Shown here: positions 1 through 13,071 of the stretch, piece after piece
How positions within the stretch are numbered: position 1 is the stretch's first letter
Layout: every line of letters starts with the position of its first letter
Program-made: the position numbers and the translations under genes
Notes under the pieces: model-generated
Told to the model about the DNA's origin: nothing
Databases searched by the model: none
What the model saw: the letters and a program-made list of their open reading frames with translations, nothing else
Assembly (NCBI GenBank): GCA_044892525.1
Contig: CM097885.1
Coordinates: 26,040,001-26,104,000, forward strand
Direction of reading: 5' to 3'
DNA: 64,000 bases
From: Schmidtea polychroa
Taxonomy: Eukaryota

Positions 1-492
1 TTGAAAAAATATTTTGTATATCAAGGTAATAAAACTTGGATAAATGTTTTGCCAAAAATTATTTTCAGTTACAATCATTCACCACACAGAGGATTAAAAG
101 GACAAACACCTGCAGATTTTACTAAAAATCAAACAAAGTCAGAAAAAATCAATAAACCGAAATACAAGGTTGGTGATCATGTAAGAATTAGTAAAATCAA
201 TTCTTCACCATTCATCAAAAACTTTGATAATAATTGGAGTGATGAAGTATATCAAATTTTTAAAATCGATACAAAACAGAATCCTGTCATGTATGTGATA
301 GTTGATCATGAAAACAAACCAATCACTGGTAAATTCTATGAACAAGAACTCCAAGTAATTCCTGCTCCTACAATATTTAGAATTCAAAAGATTTTAAAAA
401 CCAAAAAAGATGGTAAATATAAACAATACTATGTTAAATGGCATGGATATGAAACTCCATCTTGGATATCTGAAAATCAATTGATTAAATAA
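1..492 (+). CDS. Retroviral-like integrase, C-terminal part with chromodomain (5' truncated by the window)
   Basis: YNHSPHRGL..TPA, KYKVGDHVRISK, NWSDEVYQI and GKFYEQELQ motifs of Polinton integrases, followed by the chromodomain-like KILKTK..YYVKWHGY..PSWI. Confidence 0.93.
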   Translation: MKKYFVYQGNKTWINVLPKIIFSYNHSPHRGLKGQTPADFTKNQTKSEKINKPKYKVGDHVRISKINSSPFIKNFDNNWSDEVYQIFKIDTKQNPVMYVIVDHENKPITGKFYEQELQVIPAPTIFRIQKILKTKKDGKYKQYYVKWHGYETPSWISENQLIK

Positions 493-497
493 ATATT

Positions 498-1523
498 ATG
501 AAAGATTTTTATATTATTTTACCTTCTAATAGTTGTCCTCTTATTTTCCCCGATAATGAAGCTAGTAAATTTAATGTCGAATTTCAAAATCCTATTTACT
601 TGGATGGTGAATGGGAAGTAGCTCTCATGGACTTTACCTTTGTGTATAATACTTTTCCTTATTACAGTAATTCATTGATACAATATGAAAAAGTAAAGAT
701 GGATGAAGAAATTAAATATTTTAGAATAAATAATTCAAATCGAACCTTTGAAGTAATAAATCCTAAAAATACTCCTGAAGTTGACATGTTCATTGAAAGA
801 TATGAGAATTTGGTTGTTGTTTGTCCACATGTTCCATTTAAAATAACGTTTCCAGATTTTGAACATGCTATTAAATTTGGATTAAAATCAGTATCGGTTA
901 TTAGTGATAGTGATCATTTGCGAATTAAATTACCAAAATTTACAGAAGATAAAACAATTGATCAATTTGGTATAATTATAAGTGTTGTTGAAAAAACAAA
1001 ATTTGAACATTATTTCGAAGATGAACTATACATCAATACTTTATCTGAAATACATGGTCAGTTAATGACAATTAATCCGTCTCCCTTTAAAGATTTAAAA
1101 ATACAAAATAATGAATTGGTTAAAATAAGTCTTGCTGATAACATTTCATCAATAACCTTTGATAAAAATTTAACAAAAACATTGGGATTAAAGAAACAAA
1201 CATTTACAGAGAAAGAAATTATTGGAACAAAAATTCCAAAGTTATTTAATCATCATCAACAAATGTTTATTTACTCAAATATTATCGAACCATTGACTGT
1301 TGGAGATGTATGAGTTCCGTTATTGAAATCTATTTGGATAAAAAAATATGAACAAGGAGAAATTGTGCAACTAGAAATGAAGAATCCAATGTATCTACCA
1401 ATTTCTAATTCTTCTATAAACAACATTGAAATCAATATACGAGATGATAGTGGAAAATTAATAAAATTTAGTAGAGATACAAAAACACACTTGACATTAC
1501 ATTTTCGTAAAATAAATGATTAA
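498..1523 (+). pseudogene. Minor capsid protein (penton) copy 1, interrupted by an in-frame TGA at 1311-1313
   Basis: FYIILPSNS..FPDN..F.V....I.LDGEWEVAL N-terminus and IEINIRDDSG..LTLHFR C-terminus. The frame continues directly after the TGA (VPLLKSIW), matching paralogue LVPLLKCIW. Confidence 0.88.
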
Positions 1524-2532
1524 AAAAGATTTTTATGTGAATTTACCTTCTAATAGTTGTCCTCAGACTCATCCAAATAATGAAGCTGGTAAATTTAATG
1601 TCGAATTTCAAAATCCTATTTACTTGGATGGTGAATGGGAAGTAGCTCTCATGGACTTTACCTTTGTGTATAATTATTTTCCTTTTTACAGTAATTCAAA
1701 TGTCAAATATAGTAAAAGTGTATTACATACAAGTTATGAATACTTTTACTTTAACCAAGAAAAAAATGAATATACAATCAGTCACGACTCTCCATTTTAT
1801 TTAATATATATTGATGGAAATACATTGAACATTAATTGTAAATATTTTCCTTTTAAAGTAGAATTCGATAGTATTAAAGAAGCGCAGAAATTGGGATTTT
1901 CAGAAAAAGAAATAACTTTTAAAAAAGCCTTGAACCAAATCACTATTCCTCCAAATAATCGAAAAATAAAGTTTGATACAATTCGACTAACTATACAATA
2001 TTATTACGATGTCGAGTATACAGATACATTCGAAGAAAATATCATTACAGATCTTTCACAAATAAATGATCAACTATCACTCTTTTATCCTCGTCCATTT
2101 AAATCTGTTGATATTCAAAAAGGAAAAATCGTTAAAATTGTAATGGATGATGATGTCAGTAAAGTTCAATTTAGTAAATTTTTAGCCAATAGTTTAGGAT
2201 TATTAGAAGAAGCATATACTGACAAACTTATTATTGGTTTTAAAGAACCTGAAGTATTACAACGCAATCAACAATTGATGATCTATACAAATATTATCGA
2301 ACCTATTATTGTTGGTGATACATTGGTCCCTCTTTTGAAATGTATTTGGGTGGAAAAACATAAAAAAGATGATTTAGTACAAATAATTGAAAAGAATCCA
2401 ATGTACTTACCTGTATCGTCTTCATATATAAACAATATAGAAATCAATATACGAGATGATAGTGGAAAATATATATTTGGAAAAGAAGATAAAACATACT
2501 TGACATTACATTTTCGTAAAATAAATGAGTAA
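1516..2532 (+). CDS. Minor capsid protein (penton) copy 2, intact
   Basis: Same terminal motifs as copy 1; uninterrupted 338-aa ORF whose ATG overlaps the copy 1 stop. Confidence 0.88.
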   Translation: MIKKDFYVNLPSNSCPQTHPNNEAGKFNVEFQNPIYLDGEWEVALMDFTFVYNYFPFYSNSNVKYSKSVLHTSYEYFYFNQEKNEYTISHDSPFYLIYIDGNTLNINCKYFPFKVEFDSIKEAQKLGFSEKEITFKKALNQITIPPNNRKIKFDTIRLTIQYYYDVEYTDTFEENIITDLSQINDQLSLFYPRPFKSVDIQKGKIVKIVMDDDVSKVQFSKFLANSLGLLEEAYTDKLIIGFKEPEVLQRNQQLMIYTNIIEPIIVGDTLVPLLKCIWVEKHKKDDLVQIIEKNPMYLPVSSSYINNIEINIRDDSGKYIFGKEDKTYLTLHFRKINE

Positions 2533-2923
2533 TCCTGACATAATACATTTTTATAGTAGTAACCAATCGGGTGGTGATTTACCATATTTTGTTGGTAAAC
2601 AATATGGAACCGGTTGGTTGAAGACAATAGGTAGATTTGCACTCCCAATTCTTAGACGAATAGGAAATTTTGGTATGAAAACAGCTAATGACGTAATAAA
2701 TAACAATGCAAATATCTTGCCTGCTTTAAAATCAAATGCAATTTCTGAAATTAAAGAATCATTACCAGCTGTGATGCAACATTTACCTGAAGTAATTAAT
2801 AAAGTATCCGATGTATTTAAAAATGATAAAGAACAAAAAGGCGGAATACTTAAACGCCGAAAAATTATGAAGAAACATATAAACAAAAGAATGAAAGGAT
2901 ATGGTACCATCTTTGAAAAATGA
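2525..2923 (+). CDS. Small conserved Polinton virion protein (pVI-like, putatively membrane-active)
   Basis: QSGG..LPYF.G.QYG.GW...IGRFALPILRRIG amphipathic motif, basic C-terminus, and position between penton and major capsid genes. Confidence 0.7.
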   Translation: MSNPDIIHFYSSNQSGGDLPYFVGKQYGTGWLKTIGRFALPILRRIGNFGMKTANDVINNNANILPALKSNAISEIKESLPAVMQHLPEVINKVSDVFKNDKEQKGGILKRRKIMKKHINKRMKGYGTIFEK

Positions 2924-4143
2924 TTAGTGCTAAATCAGAATTATGTCTTTTTGATAGACCTTCTCCCCAAGCAGTGATTGAACATGGAGCATTTGAAGAT
3001 GTATACCCAAGAAATTCTATTACAGATGCTGGTTCTTCTTCGATTCAATTTTACATAAATGGATCGCAGACTGAATATTTAGATTTGAATGATACTTTGT
3101 TATATATTCAATTGAAAGTTGTTAATAATTTAGGTGAGAATTTAGGCGAATCAGAAGTAATTCCAAATAATTTCTTCTTCCAAACCCTTTTTAAAGATGT
3201 TGAATTAATTTTTAATTCAATCAAAGTTGAAGGATCAAATGATAGATTTGCCCACAAAGCATTAATTGAAACACTTATAAATTATGACGGAGATACTAAA
3301 CGAACATCTTTAGGTGGAATGGGGTATACTAACAAAGATCTTACGAGAAAAACATGGATTGAAAAATCAAAATCCTTTTCTTTATGTTCCCCACTTCAAT
3401 TTGATTTCTTTGATCAACCTAAATATTTACTACCAGGTGTTAGTGTTCAAATTAAATTAACAAGATCAAATCCAACACTTAGTTTAACTTGTGCGAAAAT
3501 TGAACCGAAAATTTTATTATTAGACGCAAAATTAATGGTTAGAAGAGTTCGTGTTGAACCATCGGTTTTGGCAGGACATCAAATTGGTCTGTCTACCAAA
3601 AATGCAATTTATCCTTTAAGAAGCAAAGAAGTTGTTGATTTCTCATTACCTATTGGTTCTTCCTCTTTTTATAAAGAACAAATATTTGGAGATAGACGAT
3701 TACCTAATTTTATACTTGTTGCATTTCAATCTAGTAAAAGATTTAGTGGATCGTTTTCAGAATCATTTTCTTTATTTGATCACTTTAATGTCAAGTCCAT
3801 AACTTTAAGTAAAGGAAGTGATTATCGCGAAAAATATAGTCAAGATTTTGAGAATGATGATTATAGTACAAGTTATATGCAATCGATTATTAGAAATATG
3901 GGTTATCTAAATAAAAATATGAATTGTGGTATCACCATGTCTGATTTTAAGAGCAAGTATCCATTCTTTACATTCGTATTGGCACCAGATTTTGATCTTC
4001 ATCAAAGTCAGTTACCACAAAGTGGAAATTTGCGATTAGATATTAAATTCGCATCTTCACTTACTGAAGCTGTTTCTGTAATCGTATATGGAGTTTTTGA
4101 AAAAGAAATTCAAATTACATCTACTCGTACTGTTTTGGTATAA
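2920..4143 (+). CDS. Double jelly-roll major capsid protein (hexon/PY)
   Basis: KSELCLF..P..Q..I....F..VYP...I....IQF.I.G...EYLDL..T.LY N-terminus and G.LRLDIKF..L...V..IVYG C-terminus typical of Polinton MCP; 407 aa. Confidence 0.93.
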   Translation: MISAKSELCLFDRPSPQAVIEHGAFEDVYPRNSITDAGSSSIQFYINGSQTEYLDLNDTLLYIQLKVVNNLGENLGESEVIPNNFFFQTLFKDVELIFNSIKVEGSNDRFAHKALIETLINYDGDTKRTSLGGMGYTNKDLTRKTWIEKSKSFSLCSPLQFDFFDQPKYLLPGVSVQIKLTRSNPTLSLTCAKIEPKILLLDAKLMVRRVRVEPSVLAGHQIGLSTKNAIYPLRSKEVVDFSLPIGSSSFYKEQIFGDRRLPNFILVAFQSSKRFSGSFSESFSLFDHFNVKSITLSKGSDYREKYSQDFENDDYSTSYMQSIIRNMGYLNKNMNCGITMSDFKSKYPFFTFVLAPDFDLHQSQLPQSGNLRLDIKFASSLTEAVSVIVYGVFEKEIQITSTRTVLV

Positions 4144-4177
4144 TATAAACCAAATATCGAAAATCAATTAATCAAAT

Positions 4178-4556
4178 ATGAAGTAAGAATTAATTTAAAT
4201 TATTTAATTATTATTAATTTAGTTCTATTCAGATACATGTTATCGGAAGAAAATTACTAGGAAAAGAATTTCTAGGTGTTTTCCCATTAGACAAAATACC
4301 TTATTTAGATGTCAACAAAGCAATAATTGTAAATACTCAATCTGCTAATCTGAATGGTGAACATTGGCTTGCAGTATACGTGAAACCAGACAAAATATAT
4401 GCATTTGATCCAATGGGATTCTATTATCCACCTATATTAATCAATAAACTACAATCAATGTCAATGCCGATTGAATACAATCGAATACGTTACCAAAACC
4501 CTATAACAAAAACATGTGGACAACATTGTTTGGCTTGGTTAAAGTCAATGAAATAA
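4178..4556 (+). CDS. Adenain-like cysteine protease; two exons (4178-4182, 4223-4556), 40-nt intron 4183-4222; 112 aa
   Basis: The spliced product MNSIQIHVIGRKLLGKEFLGVFPLDKIP...NTQSANLNGEHWLAV...YAFDPMG...YQNPITKTCGQHCLAWL has the adenain H/D/Q/C catalytic residues. Unspliced, the frame has an upstream TAA and no N-terminal ATG. The intron is GTAAG...TTTAG. Confidence 0.9.
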
Positions 4557-4970
4557 ATTTTTATAATAAAAAGTTGTTTTCAATAAATTTTAGCTGATTA
4601 TTTCAATAAATTTTTAGTTGATTATTAATTCAATATAATTGATTATTAAAATTTAAATTTTAGTTGATTATTAAACTAAATCTTTAATTAAGTTAATTAT
4701 TATGTAAGGTATTAAATCCTTTAATTATTATGCAAGTTATTTAATCCTTTAATTATTATGTAAGTTATTTAATCTTTTAATTATTACGCATGGTATCAAA
4801 TTTAATCCTTTAATTATTACGTAATGTATTAAGTAGAAGAAGAAGTATATAAATGATTTGTTTTTAAAATTTGCTCATAATTTGCTAGTACCAAGGATTG
4901 TAAGAATTTTATTTTTTAATTATTAAAATTTAATTATTTTTTAGATAAAAAAGATTGAAACTAAAAAACT

Positions 4971-5117
4971 ATGAAAATGAACAAAAATTCTGAAATGAAT
5001 GAAACTATGAACAAAAATTCTGAAATGAATGAAACTATGAACAAAAATGTCAAATGTAAGTATTTTTATCAATTTTTTTATAAAATTTTATAAGATGAAA
5101 TTACTAATATTTTTTAA
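4971..5117 (+). CDS. Putative small spliced Polinton gene (about 35 aa, 30-nt internal repeat)
   Basis: TATATAAA at 4846, candidate 5'UTR intron 4900-4944 (GTAAG...TTAG), ATG 4971 and donor GTAAGT at 5056. An acceptor at 5094 gives MKMNKNSEMNETMNKNSEMNETMNKNVKYEITNIF. The 3' exon assignment is uncertain. Confidence 0.4.
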
Positions 5118-5714: not shown

Positions 5715-6147
5715 TTATTCAAAAACATTTGTAATTTTCCAAATTGGTTTAATTATAACTCCATTTATCTTGACTCCTTGAATAAGTATTCGCACTTTTG
5801 ATTTTTTATCTTCGTCTAATTTACACCCTTTTTCACAATTGATAAATGTAAATTTTTCATTAAAAATCATTTCTTTATTAATTAATTTAAGAATTTCTCC
5901 AAGATTTTTTCTATCTTCTTCCCCAATATCTCCAATTTGAATATTGAATTGACATGTTTTTAAATTAACTGGTTCCTATAACAAATTAATATTAAATAAT
6001 TAAATAAAAAATTACCTTGAACGAATAAGTAATAGGATATTTCAAATAGTACATATTATATTGAAGGAATTGAATAGGAGGTTTACATACCATACCTATA
6101 ACTGATGTACTATTTTCTTCTAATAGGATACTATTTATAGTAGACAT
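5715..6147 (-). CDS. Uncharacterised Polinton protein, 130 aa; two exons (6147-6016, 5975-5715), 40-nt intron 6015-5976; possibly an OB-fold ssDNA-binding protein
   Basis: ATG at 6147, a 132-nt exon, a GTAATT...TATAG intron, then a 261-nt exon ending in TAA, open throughout. The C-terminus KVRILIQGVKINGVIIKPIWKITNV is beta-rich. Confidence 0.8.
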
Positions 6148-6202: not shown

Positions 6203-9200
6203 TTGGATGCATACATGCAAAATTATAAGAAAATTTTAATAGTATTATTTTTATCAAATGTTTTAGCCAAATTTTTAAATGTATATATTTTAGGTATACT
6301 TTATCCAAATTATTGTTCGTCGAAAGAACATAATAATTGCCATTCTATAATGGAGAATTATTATTCTAAAAAATACTATAATAAAACTTTTTTTATATGC
6401 CCCATATGTAAGATTAGCGAGCCCTTAACATATAGCGTTTTTTATAATAAGCATAAACAACATTTAGATAGGTTCAATTCTAAAAAAGATGTTATTTTTA
6501 AACGTCCTTCAACTATTGAAATAAATACTACTAATAAAAAAATTAAATTAAATACATTTGTTGAATCCCAGGTCGGATTAGTTGATGAATCCAATGATGG
6601 ATTGCCTTTTGCTGAATCCAATGTTGGATTGTCTTTTGCTGAATCCAATGATGGATTGTCTTTTGCTGAATCCGATGATGGATTGTCTTTTGCTGAATCC
6701 AATGATGGATTGCCTTTTGTTGAATCCCAGGTCGGATTAGTTGATGAATCCTATAATGAATTTGATAATCTTTCACTCGACTCTTGGGATGTAGGCGAAC
6801 CCAATAATGAATTTGATAATCTTTCACTCGACTCTTGGGATGTAGGCGAACCCAATAATGAATTTGATAATCTTTCGCTCGACTCTTGGGATGTAGGCGA
6901 ACCCAATAATGAATTTGATAATCTTTCACTCGACTCTTCGACTACTAATGTACAAATAGGAGGTAATGTACCCATAGTACAAAAAGATTTAAGGGGTACA
7001 CATCAAATTTTAAGTCTAAATACAAGTAACTTGAATATAAAGGAAATAATATTTCCAGAACAATTAATTATAAAATTACGAGATATTATTAACGAATTAG
7101 GCTCCGTCAAAATTCAATTCGGAATAACAATCGAATTTGAAAAAGACGGGGAAATAAAGGTTAATAATATTTCGAATTACGCAAAACCTTTAACTGCCTC
7201 ATTTTTTGACGAAGGCATTAGAGAACTAAACGAGAAAATAAGTAATATCACAGAGTTAGGAAGTAGCTGGATCATAAAAAAAATAACTGAAATTCACTTC
7301 ACCATAACAAAGATAAGTAGGCTAAGTAGATTAAGTGGTAGGAGTTTCATTGAACTACCTACTTGTCTAAAAAATAAAAAATGCTTAATTAATGTAAAAA
7401 ACACCGACGATTCGTGTTTTTTATATAGCATTTTAGCTATTTTAAAATATGATGAAGTTATTAAACAATATAGAAATAGAACATCCAGTTATAATTTATC
7501 TGAGTTAATATATAATCCATTAGACTTACCAATGAAATTAAAAGATATTAGAAAATTCGAGGCCAAAAATCCTGGTTTAATAATTAATGTTTTTTCTTAT
7601 GACAATAACAAACAATTAATAGATAATTACGTTTTAAAACACCCCCATTTAGACATTATACATCGTTCCAAAGTTTTAAATGGAACAGTAATTAATTTAC
7701 TATTATTAAATAAAGGGAACAATTTCCATTACATTGCTATAAGCAATTTAAATAGGTTACTGAATTGCCACATAAACACTAGTTGTCCTACACGCATACA
7801 ATCAATATGGTGTCATCGTTGTTTGAATGGTTTTAAAAATAGAAACGCACTAGAAAAACATGAAATATTATGCAAACGCAATCAATTAGGAACTACTCTT
7901 TATACTTTCCCTCAAAATAAATTCTTACAGTTTACTGACTGGTCGAAAACAGTAACTCCTCCTTTCGTAGTTTATGCCGATTTTGAGGCTATTTTACCTT
8001 GTGATAATGTTCATTTTCAGCGACACATGCCAATATCTGCTGGTCTTTTACTAGTAAATAACTTTGACGGATCTAAATCCTATCAACAGTTTATAGGTTT
8101 AGATTGCGTCGAGAGTTTTTTAAGTGCTATAGAGGATATAGCATTAAATAAGGTTCTTCCTTTTTATTATAAAATGGGTAGGAAACCAATGATTAAATTA
8201 ACTAAAAATGAGCAACAACAATTCATTAATTCAACGGTTTGTTATCTTTGTTTGAAATCTATCGTGGATCCTGTTAGAGATCACGATCATTTTACGGGCA
8301 AATACTTGGGTGCAGCTTGTAGCACATGTAACGTAAATAGAAAAATAAATAAAATTTTGCCTATCGTATTTCACAACTTGAAGGGATACGATATGCATCA
8401 TATACTTAAATATGGATTAAATAAATTTAAAAATTGGAATTTAGGGTGCATCCCAATAACTACGGAAAAATTTATATCTTTGATTGCTCATTTAGGCAAA
8501 ATTAGCATAAGATTCATTGATTCATATCAATTTGTCAATGATTCTTTGGCTAAAGCAGTCAAAACTTTGAATTCTTTGCCTTTTACTAATTCTGCTTTTT
8601 CTGGCACCATAGTAGGTGAAAAAGGAATCTTCCCTTATAATTTCGCCACTTCTTTAGATGTTCTACAAACTACGTATGAATTACCACCAATCTGGGAGGG
8701 TGTCACTGAGCTTGAGTATGAAAAAGCTCAGGAGATTTGGGTAGAATCTAATTGCAGAACTTTATTAGATTATATGATGATCTACCTAAAACTTGATTGT
8801 TTTCTTTTGGCTGATTTCTTTCATCAGTTTAGGTTGAAATCAATTGCTCACAATAGATTAGAACCTTTGAATTATTTCGGAATTCCAGGCATGTCTTGGT
8901 CTTCTGCATTAATGTCTTTAAATGAACCAATTGAACTCATAACTGAAAACGAAATGTTTAGCTTTTATGAGGGTGGAATAAGAGGCGGTCTTACTTTTGT
9001 GAATAAGCATTACGTAAAAACCGACGAGAACACCGAGTTACTTTATATAGATATTAATAATCTTTATGGGTGGGCTTTAAGTCAATCATTACCTTGTGGC
9101 GAATTTTGTTGGGTTCTTGATGGATTTGATGGAAATACTGGATGAATGTAGGAATTTAAATCTTGAATCTTTGTCTTATGGATACACACTTGAAGTTGAT

Positions 9201-10463
9201 CTTGTAATTCCTTCTGAGCTTCATGATAAGTTGGATGATTTCCCTGTAGCTGCTGAAAAAATGAAACCTGCTGGGTCTAAGGTTGAAAAATTATTATTAA
9301 CTCATCTTCCAAAATCTAATTATGTTATTCATTGGAGATTATTAAAATTATATTTAGAACTTGGTGTTAAAGTAACACGTGTAAATAGAGGTGTAAGATT
9401 TAAGCAATCACCAATTTTTAAAAAATATATAGATACAAATACCGAATTAAGATCAAAAAGCGTAAATAACTTAGATAAAAATTATTATAAATTGCTAAAT
9501 AACAGTTTATACGGCAAAACAGTTGAAAATTTAAAGAGAAGAATGAATCTTCGTCTTTGTACAACTGCCGGTAAATTAGTTAAATATTCGTCAAAACCGA
9601 CTTTTAAAAAATCTATTAAAATAGCTGATAATTTAATTGCAACACTTTTGAATTCAGATTCTATATGTTTAGATAGACCGAGTTACATTGGTCAATCTGT
9701 ACTTGATCTATCTAAACTTAGAATGTATGAATTGCAATATAAGGATCTGGAATCATTTCGCAATGAGTTTAATTGTAAAATTAATATCGTTGCTGGTGAT
9801 ACAGATTCTTTTTTCCTCGAAGTCATTAACTGCAAACTTGAGGTTCTTTTACCTGCAATGATTCGAGATAATTTATTAGATACTTCCAATTACAATAGTT
9901 GTCATTCCTTATATAGTAAGAACCTTGATTCAGTCATTGGAAAGTTCAAAGACGAGAATAAAGGTCTTAAATATAAGGAGTGGGTTTTTCTTAGACCTAA
10001 ATGTTATAGCTTGTTGGGTGATGAGGAAACAAAAAAGGCTAAAGGTGTAACATTGAAAGGTAGTGACATAAAACATCAGTCATACCTAGATTGTTATAAC
10101 ACTAACCAGATTTTTTCGGTTCCTCAGACTAAAATAACAAGCAAAAATCATCAAATTTTTACAATTAAAAACACAAAAATAGCACTAACAAACAAAGATG
10201 ACAAAAGGGTTTGGGTGGGGAAAAATGCTAGTCTTGCATATGGGCATGTAAGATTAAGTGAATTAAATATTGGAGAAAATGTTGGAGAAATTGTTGCAGA
10301 AAATGTTTCAGAAAATGATGGAGAAGATGTTTCAGAAAATGATGGAGAAAATGATGGAGAAGATGAGGAAGAATTAAATGAAGATTTTGGAGAAGATGAG
10401 GAAGAATTTAATGAAGAAGATGACATCGATATCGATGACGTTATTTTGTCCGATGAGGACTAA
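6203..10463 (+). CDS. polB: Protein-primed family B DNA polymerase (pPolB), split by a +1 frameshift near 9113-9145
   Basis: ExoI VVYADFEAIL; endonuclease VII-like CYLC..VRDHDHFTGKYLGAACSTCN; FHNLKGYD; FIDSYQF; KGIFPY; motif A YIDINNLYGWALSQ.LP in ORF1. ORF2 has motif B YKLLNNSLYGKT, motif C GDTDS, RPKCY and KAKGV. Confidence 0.95.
6581..6940 (+). repeat. In-frame coding tandem repeats in the pPolB N-terminus: 27-nt (ESNDGLSFA) x5 and 51-nt (NNEFDNLSLDSWDVGEP) x3+
   Basis: Visible directly in the DNA and the translation. Confidence 0.95.
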
Positions 10464-10529
10464 TTTTATTGAATAAATTTTATATCTTTACATTTGTTAA
10501 TTGTTTGTGTTTTATGTGTCTAGTTCATT

Positions 10530-10548
10530 TTTATGTATTTGGTCGATA

Positions 10549-10625
<77 letters not shown>

Positions 10626-10626
10626 T
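10530..10626. repeat. (ATT)n microsatellite
   Basis: Long ATT run after the polB stop. Confidence 0.95.
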
Positions 10627-10654
10627 TTCGTTAAAATTTTCATTTGACTTTGAA

Positions 10655-12111
10655 AAATATTTCATAAAAATTTTCATTAAAAGTTATCTTAAAAATTTCC
10701 ATCTAAAATTACCTAAAAAAAATATTTCATAAAAATTTCCATTAAAAATTACTTAAAAAAATATTTCATAAAAATTTCCATTAAAAATTACTTAAAAAAA
10801 TATTTCATAAAAATTTCCATTAAAAAATTTCAATTCTCAAACACCTTCAACTTTTTGTTAATAAATTTTAAAATCTTACTTTAATTTACTTATTACATTA
10901 CTTTAATTTACTTATTTAAAAATTATTACTTTAATTTACTTATTTAAAAATTATTACTTATTTAAAATTTTTTACCATTGATTACTTAATTTTAAATTTA
11001 GACCTTAATTAACTTTAATTTAATTTTTTAGAACCTTAATTTACTTTAATTTAATTTTTAGAACCATTATTTACTGTAATTGAAAAATTTGAGCCATAAT
11101 TAACTTTAATTTAATTTTTAGAACCATTATTTACTTTAATTGAAAAATCTGGACCATAATTTACTGTAATTTAATATTTTAGAACCATAATTTACTTTAA
11201 TTTAATTTTTAGAACCATTATTTACTTTAATTGAAAAATTTGGACCATAATTTACTGTAATTTAATATTTTAGAACCATAATTTACTTTAATTTAATTTT
11301 TAGAACCATAATTACCTTATTTGAAAAATTTGAGCCATAATTAACTTTAATTTAATTTTTAGAACCATTATTTACTTTAATTGAAAAATTTGAACCGTAA
11401 TTTACTTTAATTGAAAAATTTACCACGTTTTTTAGTGTAGACCACCTATTTCTCAGGACCAAGGAGACTCACCTCACTATAGCGTGATAAATCCTTGGCT
11501 TTTTTATTGATAGTAGGATTTTTGTATAGAAAAAAATTTTTCGTATTGAAAATCCCAGGACCAAGGAGACTCACCTCACTATAGTCTGAAAAATCCTTGG
11601 CTTTTTTAGTGGTAGTCGGATTTTTGTATTGAAAAAAAATTTTTGTATTGAAAATCCCAGGACCATCGAGACCCCCTCACTATAGTGTGAATAATCCTTG
11701 GCTTTTTTAGTGGTAGTCGGATTTTTGTATTGAAAAAAATTTTTTGTATTGAAAATCCCAGGACCATCGAGACCCCCTCACTATAGTGTGAATAATCCTT
11801 GGCTTTTTTAGTGGTAGTCGGATTTTTGTATAGAAAAAATTTTTTGTATTGAAAATCCCAGGACCATCGAGACCCCCTCACTATAGTGTGAATAATCCTT
11901 GACTTTTTTATTGATAGTCGGATTTTTGTATAGAAATTCCCAGGACCATCAAGACCCTCTCACTATAGTGTGATAAAAAAAAATTTGGACCAAAAATCCC
12001 TGAAAGCAAAAAATGAGTTGGGAACAATTGCGTAATAAAAATTTGGGAACAAACCCCCCCCCCCCCCGGGGGGGGGGGGTAATTGTTCCCGTAGGCCACT
12101 ATCTACCTACT
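10655..12111. repeat. Polinton right terminal/subterminal region (probable TIR): 39-bp AT repeats, degenerate AT repeats, about 101-bp tandem units (11453-11975) and a C14G12 hairpin
   Basis: Units start at about 11453, 11555, 11657, 11758, 11858 and 11939. The same motifs occur in inverted form next to the second terminus at 62634. The inner boundary is estimated. Confidence 0.75.
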
Positions 12112-13071
12112 CACCCAAAATAGCAGTGATAAGCATTCCTAATCATTGGAGTAAGAGAACGTTTCTGTGTGGAAAATGTCGCTTTACCGCACACATAACA
12201 GAATTTATCAGCTTTATTTACACACTTTTGAGGTATTTCAAGATAATGAATGCTAACTGACACGAAAAATTCATGTGCACTACTCAAAAGCTTGTCTATG
12301 ACTGATTCATAACAGAGGAAGATATTTAATCAGTAAATGTGCTGACTCAGCACCAAATTGTTGTAAATGTGAGGACGTAGCACAAAATTCGTACAGGACT
12401 GCTATAGCAAGTACAACTGAAACGAAGATATACCCAATGTTTAAGAAAACAGCAGTTTCTAAGTAAAATTTACTGTATCATAAAAACTAGAGCTAAACAA
12501 CATTTTTTAATGTCATACTATTTTTCAGCACAGCAAAATTAGTTATAATTGACTGATTTCATCACCGATACATATTTTGGCTGTTTATCGGTTATAATTA
12601 TAATTAATAAACATTCATTTATTAAATTTCAAATTATTATATATTTTACTAACAATTTACATGTTATATGGCATTTAAGATAGTTGATAGTTATTAAAAT
12701 GTTGCATATTTTCATTGTAAATAAATCAAACCTATTTATCAAAATATTAAAAGATTGTACTAATTGCAAGATTTGAATAAATGTTGATTTATCGTTTCCA
12801 TTAAAACTATTTCTTATGTATGACACTATATAATTTATCCTATGAAGAAGGATGGATGCAAGATAATTCTGATGTTTTAGTCACGACATTAAACCTTTCG
12901 GCAATTTTCTAAAAAGTTTTTGAGAAAATATTAAATTAACTTATTTATACTTGATAAAGAACTGTAATATTTAGGACGCGCAAATTTCTTTTAAGTGATA
13001 CTATACAAATTTTACTCTAAATTTTGAAACAATTACTCACAATACATTTTCAATTATTTATTTATTTTTAG

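Follow-up and report, generated by a model that had tools for sequence, protein, structure and literature searches.

The maturation protease of a Polinton in Schmidtea polychroa probably has its start codon split off by a canonical spliceosomal intron of 40 nt, which the host spliceosome would remove constitutively. The gene lies in a 64,000-nucleotide stretch of contig CM097885.1 (positions 26,040,001 to 26,104,000; hereafter the window, in whose coordinates all positions are given unless a locus is named), and its parts are as follows.

4144..4150, + strand: TATA-like box TATAAAC, predicted promoter, 34 nt 5′ of the ATG
4178..4182, + strand: predicted coding part of micro-exon 1 (start codon plus two bases); ATG-R-A abuts GTAAG in 17/17 representatives
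4183..4222, + strand: predicted 40-nt GT-AG intron, phase 2, present in 30/30 family copies and in genomic pattern matches
4223..4556, + strand: exon 2, adenain-type (Peptidase_C5) maturation protease of 110 codons plus stop, supported by Pfam, a 1AVP profile match and dN/dS

The ATG occupies 4178-4180, and the segment at 4183-4222 starts with GTAAG and ends with TAG. Beyond it, the protease frame is open from 4224 for 110 codons, up to the TAA at 4554-4556. With five bases in exon 1 the segment is in phase 2, as required for entering the protease frame, whereas unspliced reading from the same ATG gives Met-Lys-stop. The initial annotation had stated that the protease is missing from the open reading frame track and that its frame is closed by an upstream TAA. 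Both points are correct: a TAA three codons upstream closes the frame, and the gene is absent from the window's list of ATG-start ORFs (at least 60 aa). The first in-frame Met of the protease frame is residue 64, which lies downstream of the catalytic His and Asp. When the upstream spacer was shuffled in 200,000 trials, ATGnnGT arose at a usable distance in 0.5% of cases and ATGnnGTAAG in 0.0025%. The intron interior is about 90% A+T. A [TA]ATAAA[CT] motif begins 32-37 nt 5′ of the ATG in 8 of 10 families; if this TATA-like box acts as a promoter, it predicts that exon 1 is only about 10 nt long.

Removal of 4183-4222 does yield the adenain-type protease that had been proposed. The frame matches Peptidase_C5 (PF00770) with an E-value of 1.3e-5, above the Pfam cut-off, and a 17-sequence profile of protease relatives matches residues 18-133 of the adenovirus proteinase 1AVP (E 8e-7). 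Across the 17 relatives, His47, Gln91 and Cys98 are invariant and Asp62 is nearly so. The product shares the His/acidic/Gln/Cys core with adenain (PDB 1AVP) and differs from it in size, at about 112 aa versus 204 aa. The description ‘complete adenain’ in the initial annotation accordingly holds for a compact family of about 112 aa, whose closest Met-starting relatives are mostly 111-127 aa long, and not for the 204-aa form of adenoviruses. Exon 2 is under purifying selection, with dN of 0.06-0.30 against dS of 0.61-2.76 in 28 family pairs (dN/dS about 0.08-0.3). Because most dS values exceed 1 and silent sites are near saturation, the splice sites have outlasted near-saturation at these positions.

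The genome searched comprises 781 Mb, mostly in four large contigs, and contains thousands of Polinton/Maverick copies. Identical 110 residues are encoded by 143 of the 150 scored protease matches (5,335 candidates). In the family of the window copy (family A), the ATG, GTAAG and TAG are kept in all 30 loci read, with a median difference from the window copy of 0.4%. Family B, at 85% identity, has a 41-nt segment with a different interior; GT and AG are present in 30/30 of its loci and the ATG in 28/30. Two overlapping patterns for the interrupted form returned 339 and 2,022 genomic matches, and the reversed controls returned 0. Two patterns that tolerate gaps of 0-30 and 0-28 nt found no intron-less protease copy: they gave 2 and 7 matches, none with a zero gap, and the 2 are not protease genes while the 7 have gaps of 5-27 nt. 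The initial annotation had named continuous ATG-led copies, and with them a private insertion in the window copy, as the outcome that would overturn its reading. A private insertion is ruled out by the 30/30 family copies and the absence of zero-gap copies. A distant protease used as genome query recovered only the same families and none further. Among the loci encountered, G000:C2:102217171-102296768 holds about 16 protease-bearing units at a spacing of 3.5-7 kb, with one 17-kb gap, and represents a tandem array of element fragments. Mirror-image Polinton gene layouts (inverted duplications) were seen inside single loci at G000:C2:147741701-147751700 (L068) and G000:C1:79933334-79935038.

The same intron site and phase are found in eight in-genome families and in two metagenomic lineages at 51-57% identity. 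Among 13 protease-bearing loci picked by integrase patterns, which are blind to the protease start, 12 have the GT-AG segment (59-74% identity), and the exception is a decayed copy. Six metagenomic loci were considered: L130 to L132, which make up the two lineages at 51-57%, share the position and phase of the segment; L133 (51% identity) has a continuous Met-led protease frame and no intron; and L134 (34%) and L135 (a fragment) were left unclassed. No relatives were found in IMG/VR with the protease, the protease alignment, a capsid ORF or the ATPase as query. Intron length in the 17 representatives ranges over 36-42 nt and takes all three remainders modulo 3, which rules out a coding segment; without splicing, each of the 17 reads Met-Lys/Glu-stop. 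All 10 families in the comparison set have a GT donor and a YAG acceptor in the frame-restoring phase (GTAAG..TAG, phase 2). In this set only positions +1 to +5 and −3 to −1 are invariant, partly by construction as the script demanded GTAA and AG, although 9 of the 10 loci were picked without an intron pattern; the interior has an identity of 0.62 versus 0.57 when shuffled. The expectation that the ends of the segment are kept while its interior drifts across copies was therefore borne out, and comparison strongly supports the proposed intron of spliceosomal type, whose removal would depend on the host. A single gain is likely, one that predates the divergence of these families from the metagenomic relatives at 51-57% identity.

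Database relatives of the protease point in the same direction. In 101 of 149 of them a Met stands 17-22 residues ahead of the GVF motif, which is where exon 1 would put it. P0005 and P0017 are Met-led and may come from intron-less genes or from spliced transcripts. Five others (P0002, P0003, P0026, P0029 and P0057) are shortened or have extensions of AT-rich codons, and these odd N-termini would be explained by gene callers reading through the intron, as judged from the proteins and not from DNA. The earlier statement that ORF-based annotation would miss such genes holds in that the window list lacks the protease and five database relatives appear mis-started, though for the latter the read-through is deduced from proteins only.

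The element itself is a 16.7-kb Polinton with its left end at L031:5434 (4.6 kb left of the window) and its right end at 12111. Its ends are inverted and both are flanked by CACCCA, a perfect 6-bp target-site duplication of the kind by which Polintons/Mavericks are recognised, as they also are by an adenain-type protease (PF00770; PDB 1AVP). Its other features in the window are listed here.

1..492, + strand: 3′ part (exon 2) of the rve integrase, with a 42-nt GT-AG segment at L031:9840-9881
498..2532, + strand: two paralogous putative minor-capsid ORFs, no intron; the capsid identity is a lead only
2920..4143, + strand: putative major capsid protein, a single ORF with no intron, from Atlas matches
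5715..6147, − strand: antisense two-exon ORF of 44 + 86 codons, family unassigned, with a 40-nt GT-AG phase-0 segment at 6015-5976 and no Pfam match
6292..10463, + strand: main exon of protein-primed DNA polymerase B (pPolB), with a conserved phase-1 acceptor AG (6292-6293) in front
10464..12111, no strand: right arm with the terminal inverted repeat; its end at 12111 adjoins CACCCA

The integrase matches rve (PF00665) on exon 1 with an E-value of 2.1e-8; on exon 2, the rve_3 and chromo matches stay below cut-off. The A32-type packaging ATPase (PF04665, E 7.9e-7, over cut-off) is a continuous ORF, and a TBP-like protein (PF00352, E 5.5e-16) is encoded head-to-head with it at L031:7587-8111 on the minus strand. 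The putative capsid ORFs, candidates for the double jelly-roll major and single jelly-roll minor capsid proteins typical of Polintons/Mavericks, have no Pfam match. Their Atlas leads are PF21738-bearing and Preplasmiviricota clusters, with recognition under threshold; the major capsid candidate matches at 0.98 clusters that have the PF21738 double jelly roll in 24-30% of members, again with recognition below threshold. The pPolB matches PF03175 (E 1.4e-8, over cut-off) and has a frameshift near 9120-9145 that is private to the window copy, as is the stop at 1311-1313 that cuts the first putative minor-capsid ORF. In the three sister copies read, the pPolB and minor-capsid frames are open and both the protease and integrase introns are present. 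Acidic tandem repeats (27-nt and 51-nt units) occur in the N-terminal part of pPolB at 6215-7100 and vary in number between sister copies, and residues 662-707 of the polymerase give a weak endonuclease VII match, below cut-off. A broken hAT-like transposase lies to the left of the Polinton (L031:2388-4338 and flanks), and the Polinton appears to be inserted in another repeat, whose text resumes at 12112.

Further GT-AG segments interrupt other genes of the element. The integrase is split inside its catalytic LQTDxG/KEF motif by the insert at L031:9840-9881, about 120-160 nt before base 1 of the window. This insert is AT-rich in families A and B: it is 42 nt long and contains an in-frame stop in family A, and is 43 nt long, causing a frameshift, in family B. 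In family F the inserts are in-frame ATT repeats of variable length (42-60 nt or more) that would give poly-Ile if read through. Families C, D and G have a continuous integrase with the exact intron-less motif, and L132 is also continuous; further integrase loci with or without the insert are L177, L179, L180 and L185, and L089, L167, L171 and L183. Genome-wide, the integrase motif gave 868 matches with the insert and 124 without, by patterns that differ in stringency. In a tree of integrase exon 2 (22 rows; L092 and other short matches were left out), the two insert types stand in separate groups among insert-free lineages, which amounts to two changes, although the test does not reject one origin (p-AU 0.085). 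The capsid tree is likewise patchy. It is possible that the integrase gained an intron twice at one AG/GT site. An origin by tandem duplication of the AG/GT flanks was considered and is unsupported, with the best alignment at 25/42 matches versus a shuffled mean of 20.8 (p 0.068).

The intron of the antisense ORF is 50 nt long at the same position in family B, and its distant counterparts in L089, L092 and L132 are unbroken ORFs. This ORF sits between the genes for the protease and the polymerase and may lie in a pPolB intron; in other families its homologue is found in the left arm and is intron-free. A phase-1 AG precedes the pPolB frame in families A, B, C, D and F, and the true start of the polymerase likely lies on one or more upstream exons. 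In the window, 4850-5100 contains a TATATAAAT box, a 45-nt GTAAG..TAG segment (4900-4944), a repeat-rich Met-led stretch (4971-5055) and a GTAAG donor at 5056, and family B has a similar layout; this region could represent either a small gene or the 5′ end of pPolB, joined to it by splicing. The three introns of the element (protease, integrase and antisense ORF) differ in sequence, and those of the integrase and the antisense ORF are probably introns of the same kind that individual families gained later.

For the host, a heuristic scan of myosin loci, not RNA-validated, gave 32 candidate AT-rich GT-AG segments, some of them overlapping and mostly 42-60 nt long; the Polinton introns resemble these candidates in being short and AT-rich, and at 36-42 nt are at or below their short end. 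Four contig-only runs compared with L063:60-7590 gave no joint at the protease or integrase intron among the 15 of 89 joints listed, the integrase intron being masked as repeat. One run guessed to be RNA covers all L063 bins, as DNA would, and another has poly(A) loose ends and leaves the introns uncovered. Poly(A) loose ends from one RNA-guessed run fall at L063:2330 and 4773, within the integrase and the second putative minor-capsid ORF, and would reflect internal priming or early polyadenylation.

Under constitutive splicing, the gene would be transcribed in the nucleus from the TATA-like box about 30 nt upstream, giving a micro first exon, and the spliceosome would join 4182 to 4223 in phase 2. 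The spliced RNA would then encode a protease of about 112 residues that processes virion proteins, in keeping with the established role of adenain in virion maturation. Selection would keep the splice sites, since unspliced RNA encodes only Met-Lys/Glu-stop, and the intron's persistence is likely due to replication as DNA, which offers no reverse-transcription step at which it could be lost. The integrase insert also counts for splicing: it breaks the catalytic motif, with a stop in family A and a shifted frame in family B. Even so, the median difference among family A copies is only 0.4% and the element has a perfect target-site duplication. However, integrase could be supplied in trans from intron-less families, which would weaken this argument from a recent burst.

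The initial annotation had further suggested that host splicing is possibly a late or tissue-specific switch for maturation. In such a reading the intron would be a regulated gate, retained in most cells and spliced late or in particular tissues, so as to time the protease and virion maturation. Several observations are compatible with a gate: the unspliced form is a two-codon ORF in 17/17 representatives, no loss of the intron is seen among thousands of copies although dS exceeds 1, the intron is very short and would lie near the cap, and the putative capsid and ATPase ORFs are intron-free. We nevertheless regard regulation of this kind as unlikely. The early stop is an automatic by-product of a phase-2 GTAA donor and not evidence of regulation, and retention over time is the default for DNA replicators. 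In addition, the donor is a plain, strong GTAAG, the interior is unconstrained with no conserved regulatory word, a similar intron occurs in the integrase, which is not a late gene, and L133 functions without an intron, which makes the protease intron dispensable. The wider proposal, that an old animal polintovirus lineage gates its protease by host splicing of a TATA-proximal micro-exon while its core genes keep gaining introns, possibly twice at the integrase AG/GT, is for us similarly doubtful.

Readings without a cis-spliced intron fare less well. Translation could begin at a near-cognate codon in exon 2 (e.g. ATT at 4227), with the upstream ATG-GTAAG being a promoter or leader motif. Exon 1 contributes only two residues, an in-frame TTG stands just 5′ of the acceptor in some families and is where the database proteins P0004 and P0006 begin, and no spliced RNA was seen among the joints listed from the four contig runs. 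But family A has no such TTG and has a stop three codons upstream, and the invariant same-phase TAG and fixed spacing of 36-42 nt would be left unexplained. Choosing another start would, moreover, not get round the GT-AG inserts of the integrase core and of the antisense ORF, and we consider a near-cognate start improbable. It is more improbable still that the segment is a disabling insertion or decayed remnant in non-autonomous copies. The private minor-capsid stop and polymerase frameshift of the window copy fit such decay, but three sister copies keep those frames open and still have both introns, the segment is present in all families next to an exon with dN/dS of about 0.08-0.3, and the gap patterns found no intron-less protease copy in the genome. 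Finally, spliced leaders ending in AUG are known in flatworms, and the AG at 4221-4222 could be a trans-splice acceptor at which such a leader supplies the Met. The flatworm-like host and the very short predicted first exon suit this idea, which we hold to be scarcely credible: an AUG joined at this acceptor reads frame 0 and not the protease, and the conserved cis donor would have no explanation.

Introns are ordinary in DNA transposons and in nuclear DNA viruses. Adenoviruses use host splicing and place a leader before an unbroken protease ORF; adenovirus splicing thus leaves that ORF whole, whereas the intron described here splits codon 2. For Mavericks, the available text of two studies describes intronless core genes, in vertebrates (PMC8097293, Barreat and Katzourakis 2021) and in nematodes (bioRxiv 10.1101/2022.07.12.499685, Widen et al.), where introns occur only in host-derived cargo genes. 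In the former, elements with intronless ORFs are scored as intact and Genewise introns are taken as degradation. As far as these texts describe them, vertebrate and nematode Mavericks resemble the present element in terminal inverted repeats, 6-bp target-site duplication, rve integrase, pPolB, A32-type ATPase, adenain-type protease and putative capsid genes, and differ from it in that core genes here (protease, integrase and likely pPolB) have GT-AG introns. Intronless core ORFs are a described trait outside the gene-content definition, and this Polinton does not share it.

Intron-like sequences inside Polinton-group viral elements have also been described in dinoflagellate eupolintoviruses, as introners of which about a quarter are in coding regions (PMC12166617, 2025). 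According to the portions available, these are mobile, mostly post-integration and found in protist elements of uncertain intactness, whereas the protease intron here is fixed, old, splice-site-constrained and in an animal lineage. Cryptophyte Polinton-like viruses have introns within viral genes too, although these are self-splicing group I introns of 309-376 nt and not spliceosomal (PMC12220804, available text). Ginger1 integrase-type transposase genes contain 1-4 mostly GT-AG introns (PMC2836005, in part); unlike this Polinton, Ginger1 elements are simple cut-and-paste transposons without virion genes. The accessible parts of PMC8502044 and bioRxiv 10.1101/2023.08.22.554363 do not mention a spliceosomal intron in Polinton genes, and those of PMC6431247, PMC11296320, PMC11244446, 10.64898/2026.07.28.741278 and 10.1101/2024.03.25.586562 contain nothing on Polinton core-gene introns. 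Introns are ignored in viral gene calling in bioRxiv 10.1101/2022.05.02.489867 and 10.1101/2025.04.19.649669, again for the text available, the latter of which places Orthopolintovirales insertions in flatworms. Silencing of planarian Polintons by piRNA, and their de-repression, are covered in the available part of PMC8532177. Within this literature, much of it in partial text, a conserved spliceosomal intron did not turn up for either the protease or the integrase of an animal Polinton; Repbase, which lies outside the search, may already annotate such introns.

The predicted introns, among them an old one in the protease and a presence/absence series in the integrase, contradict the intronless description of these elements. 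Animal Polintons are called intact or degraded by ORF continuity, so if the introns are spliced, elements that are intact pass for broken or for lacking a protease, and database proteins carry wrong N-termini. Splicing would also place transcription of the core genes in the nucleus and make their RNA a substrate of the host spliceosome. Thousands of copies, from at least eight families, would then be available in a single genome: their protease intron is old and fixed, and those of the integrase and the antisense ORF are present or absent at exact positions. A virus-like element thereby becomes a test case for how introns are gained and lost and for how short a spliced intron can be.
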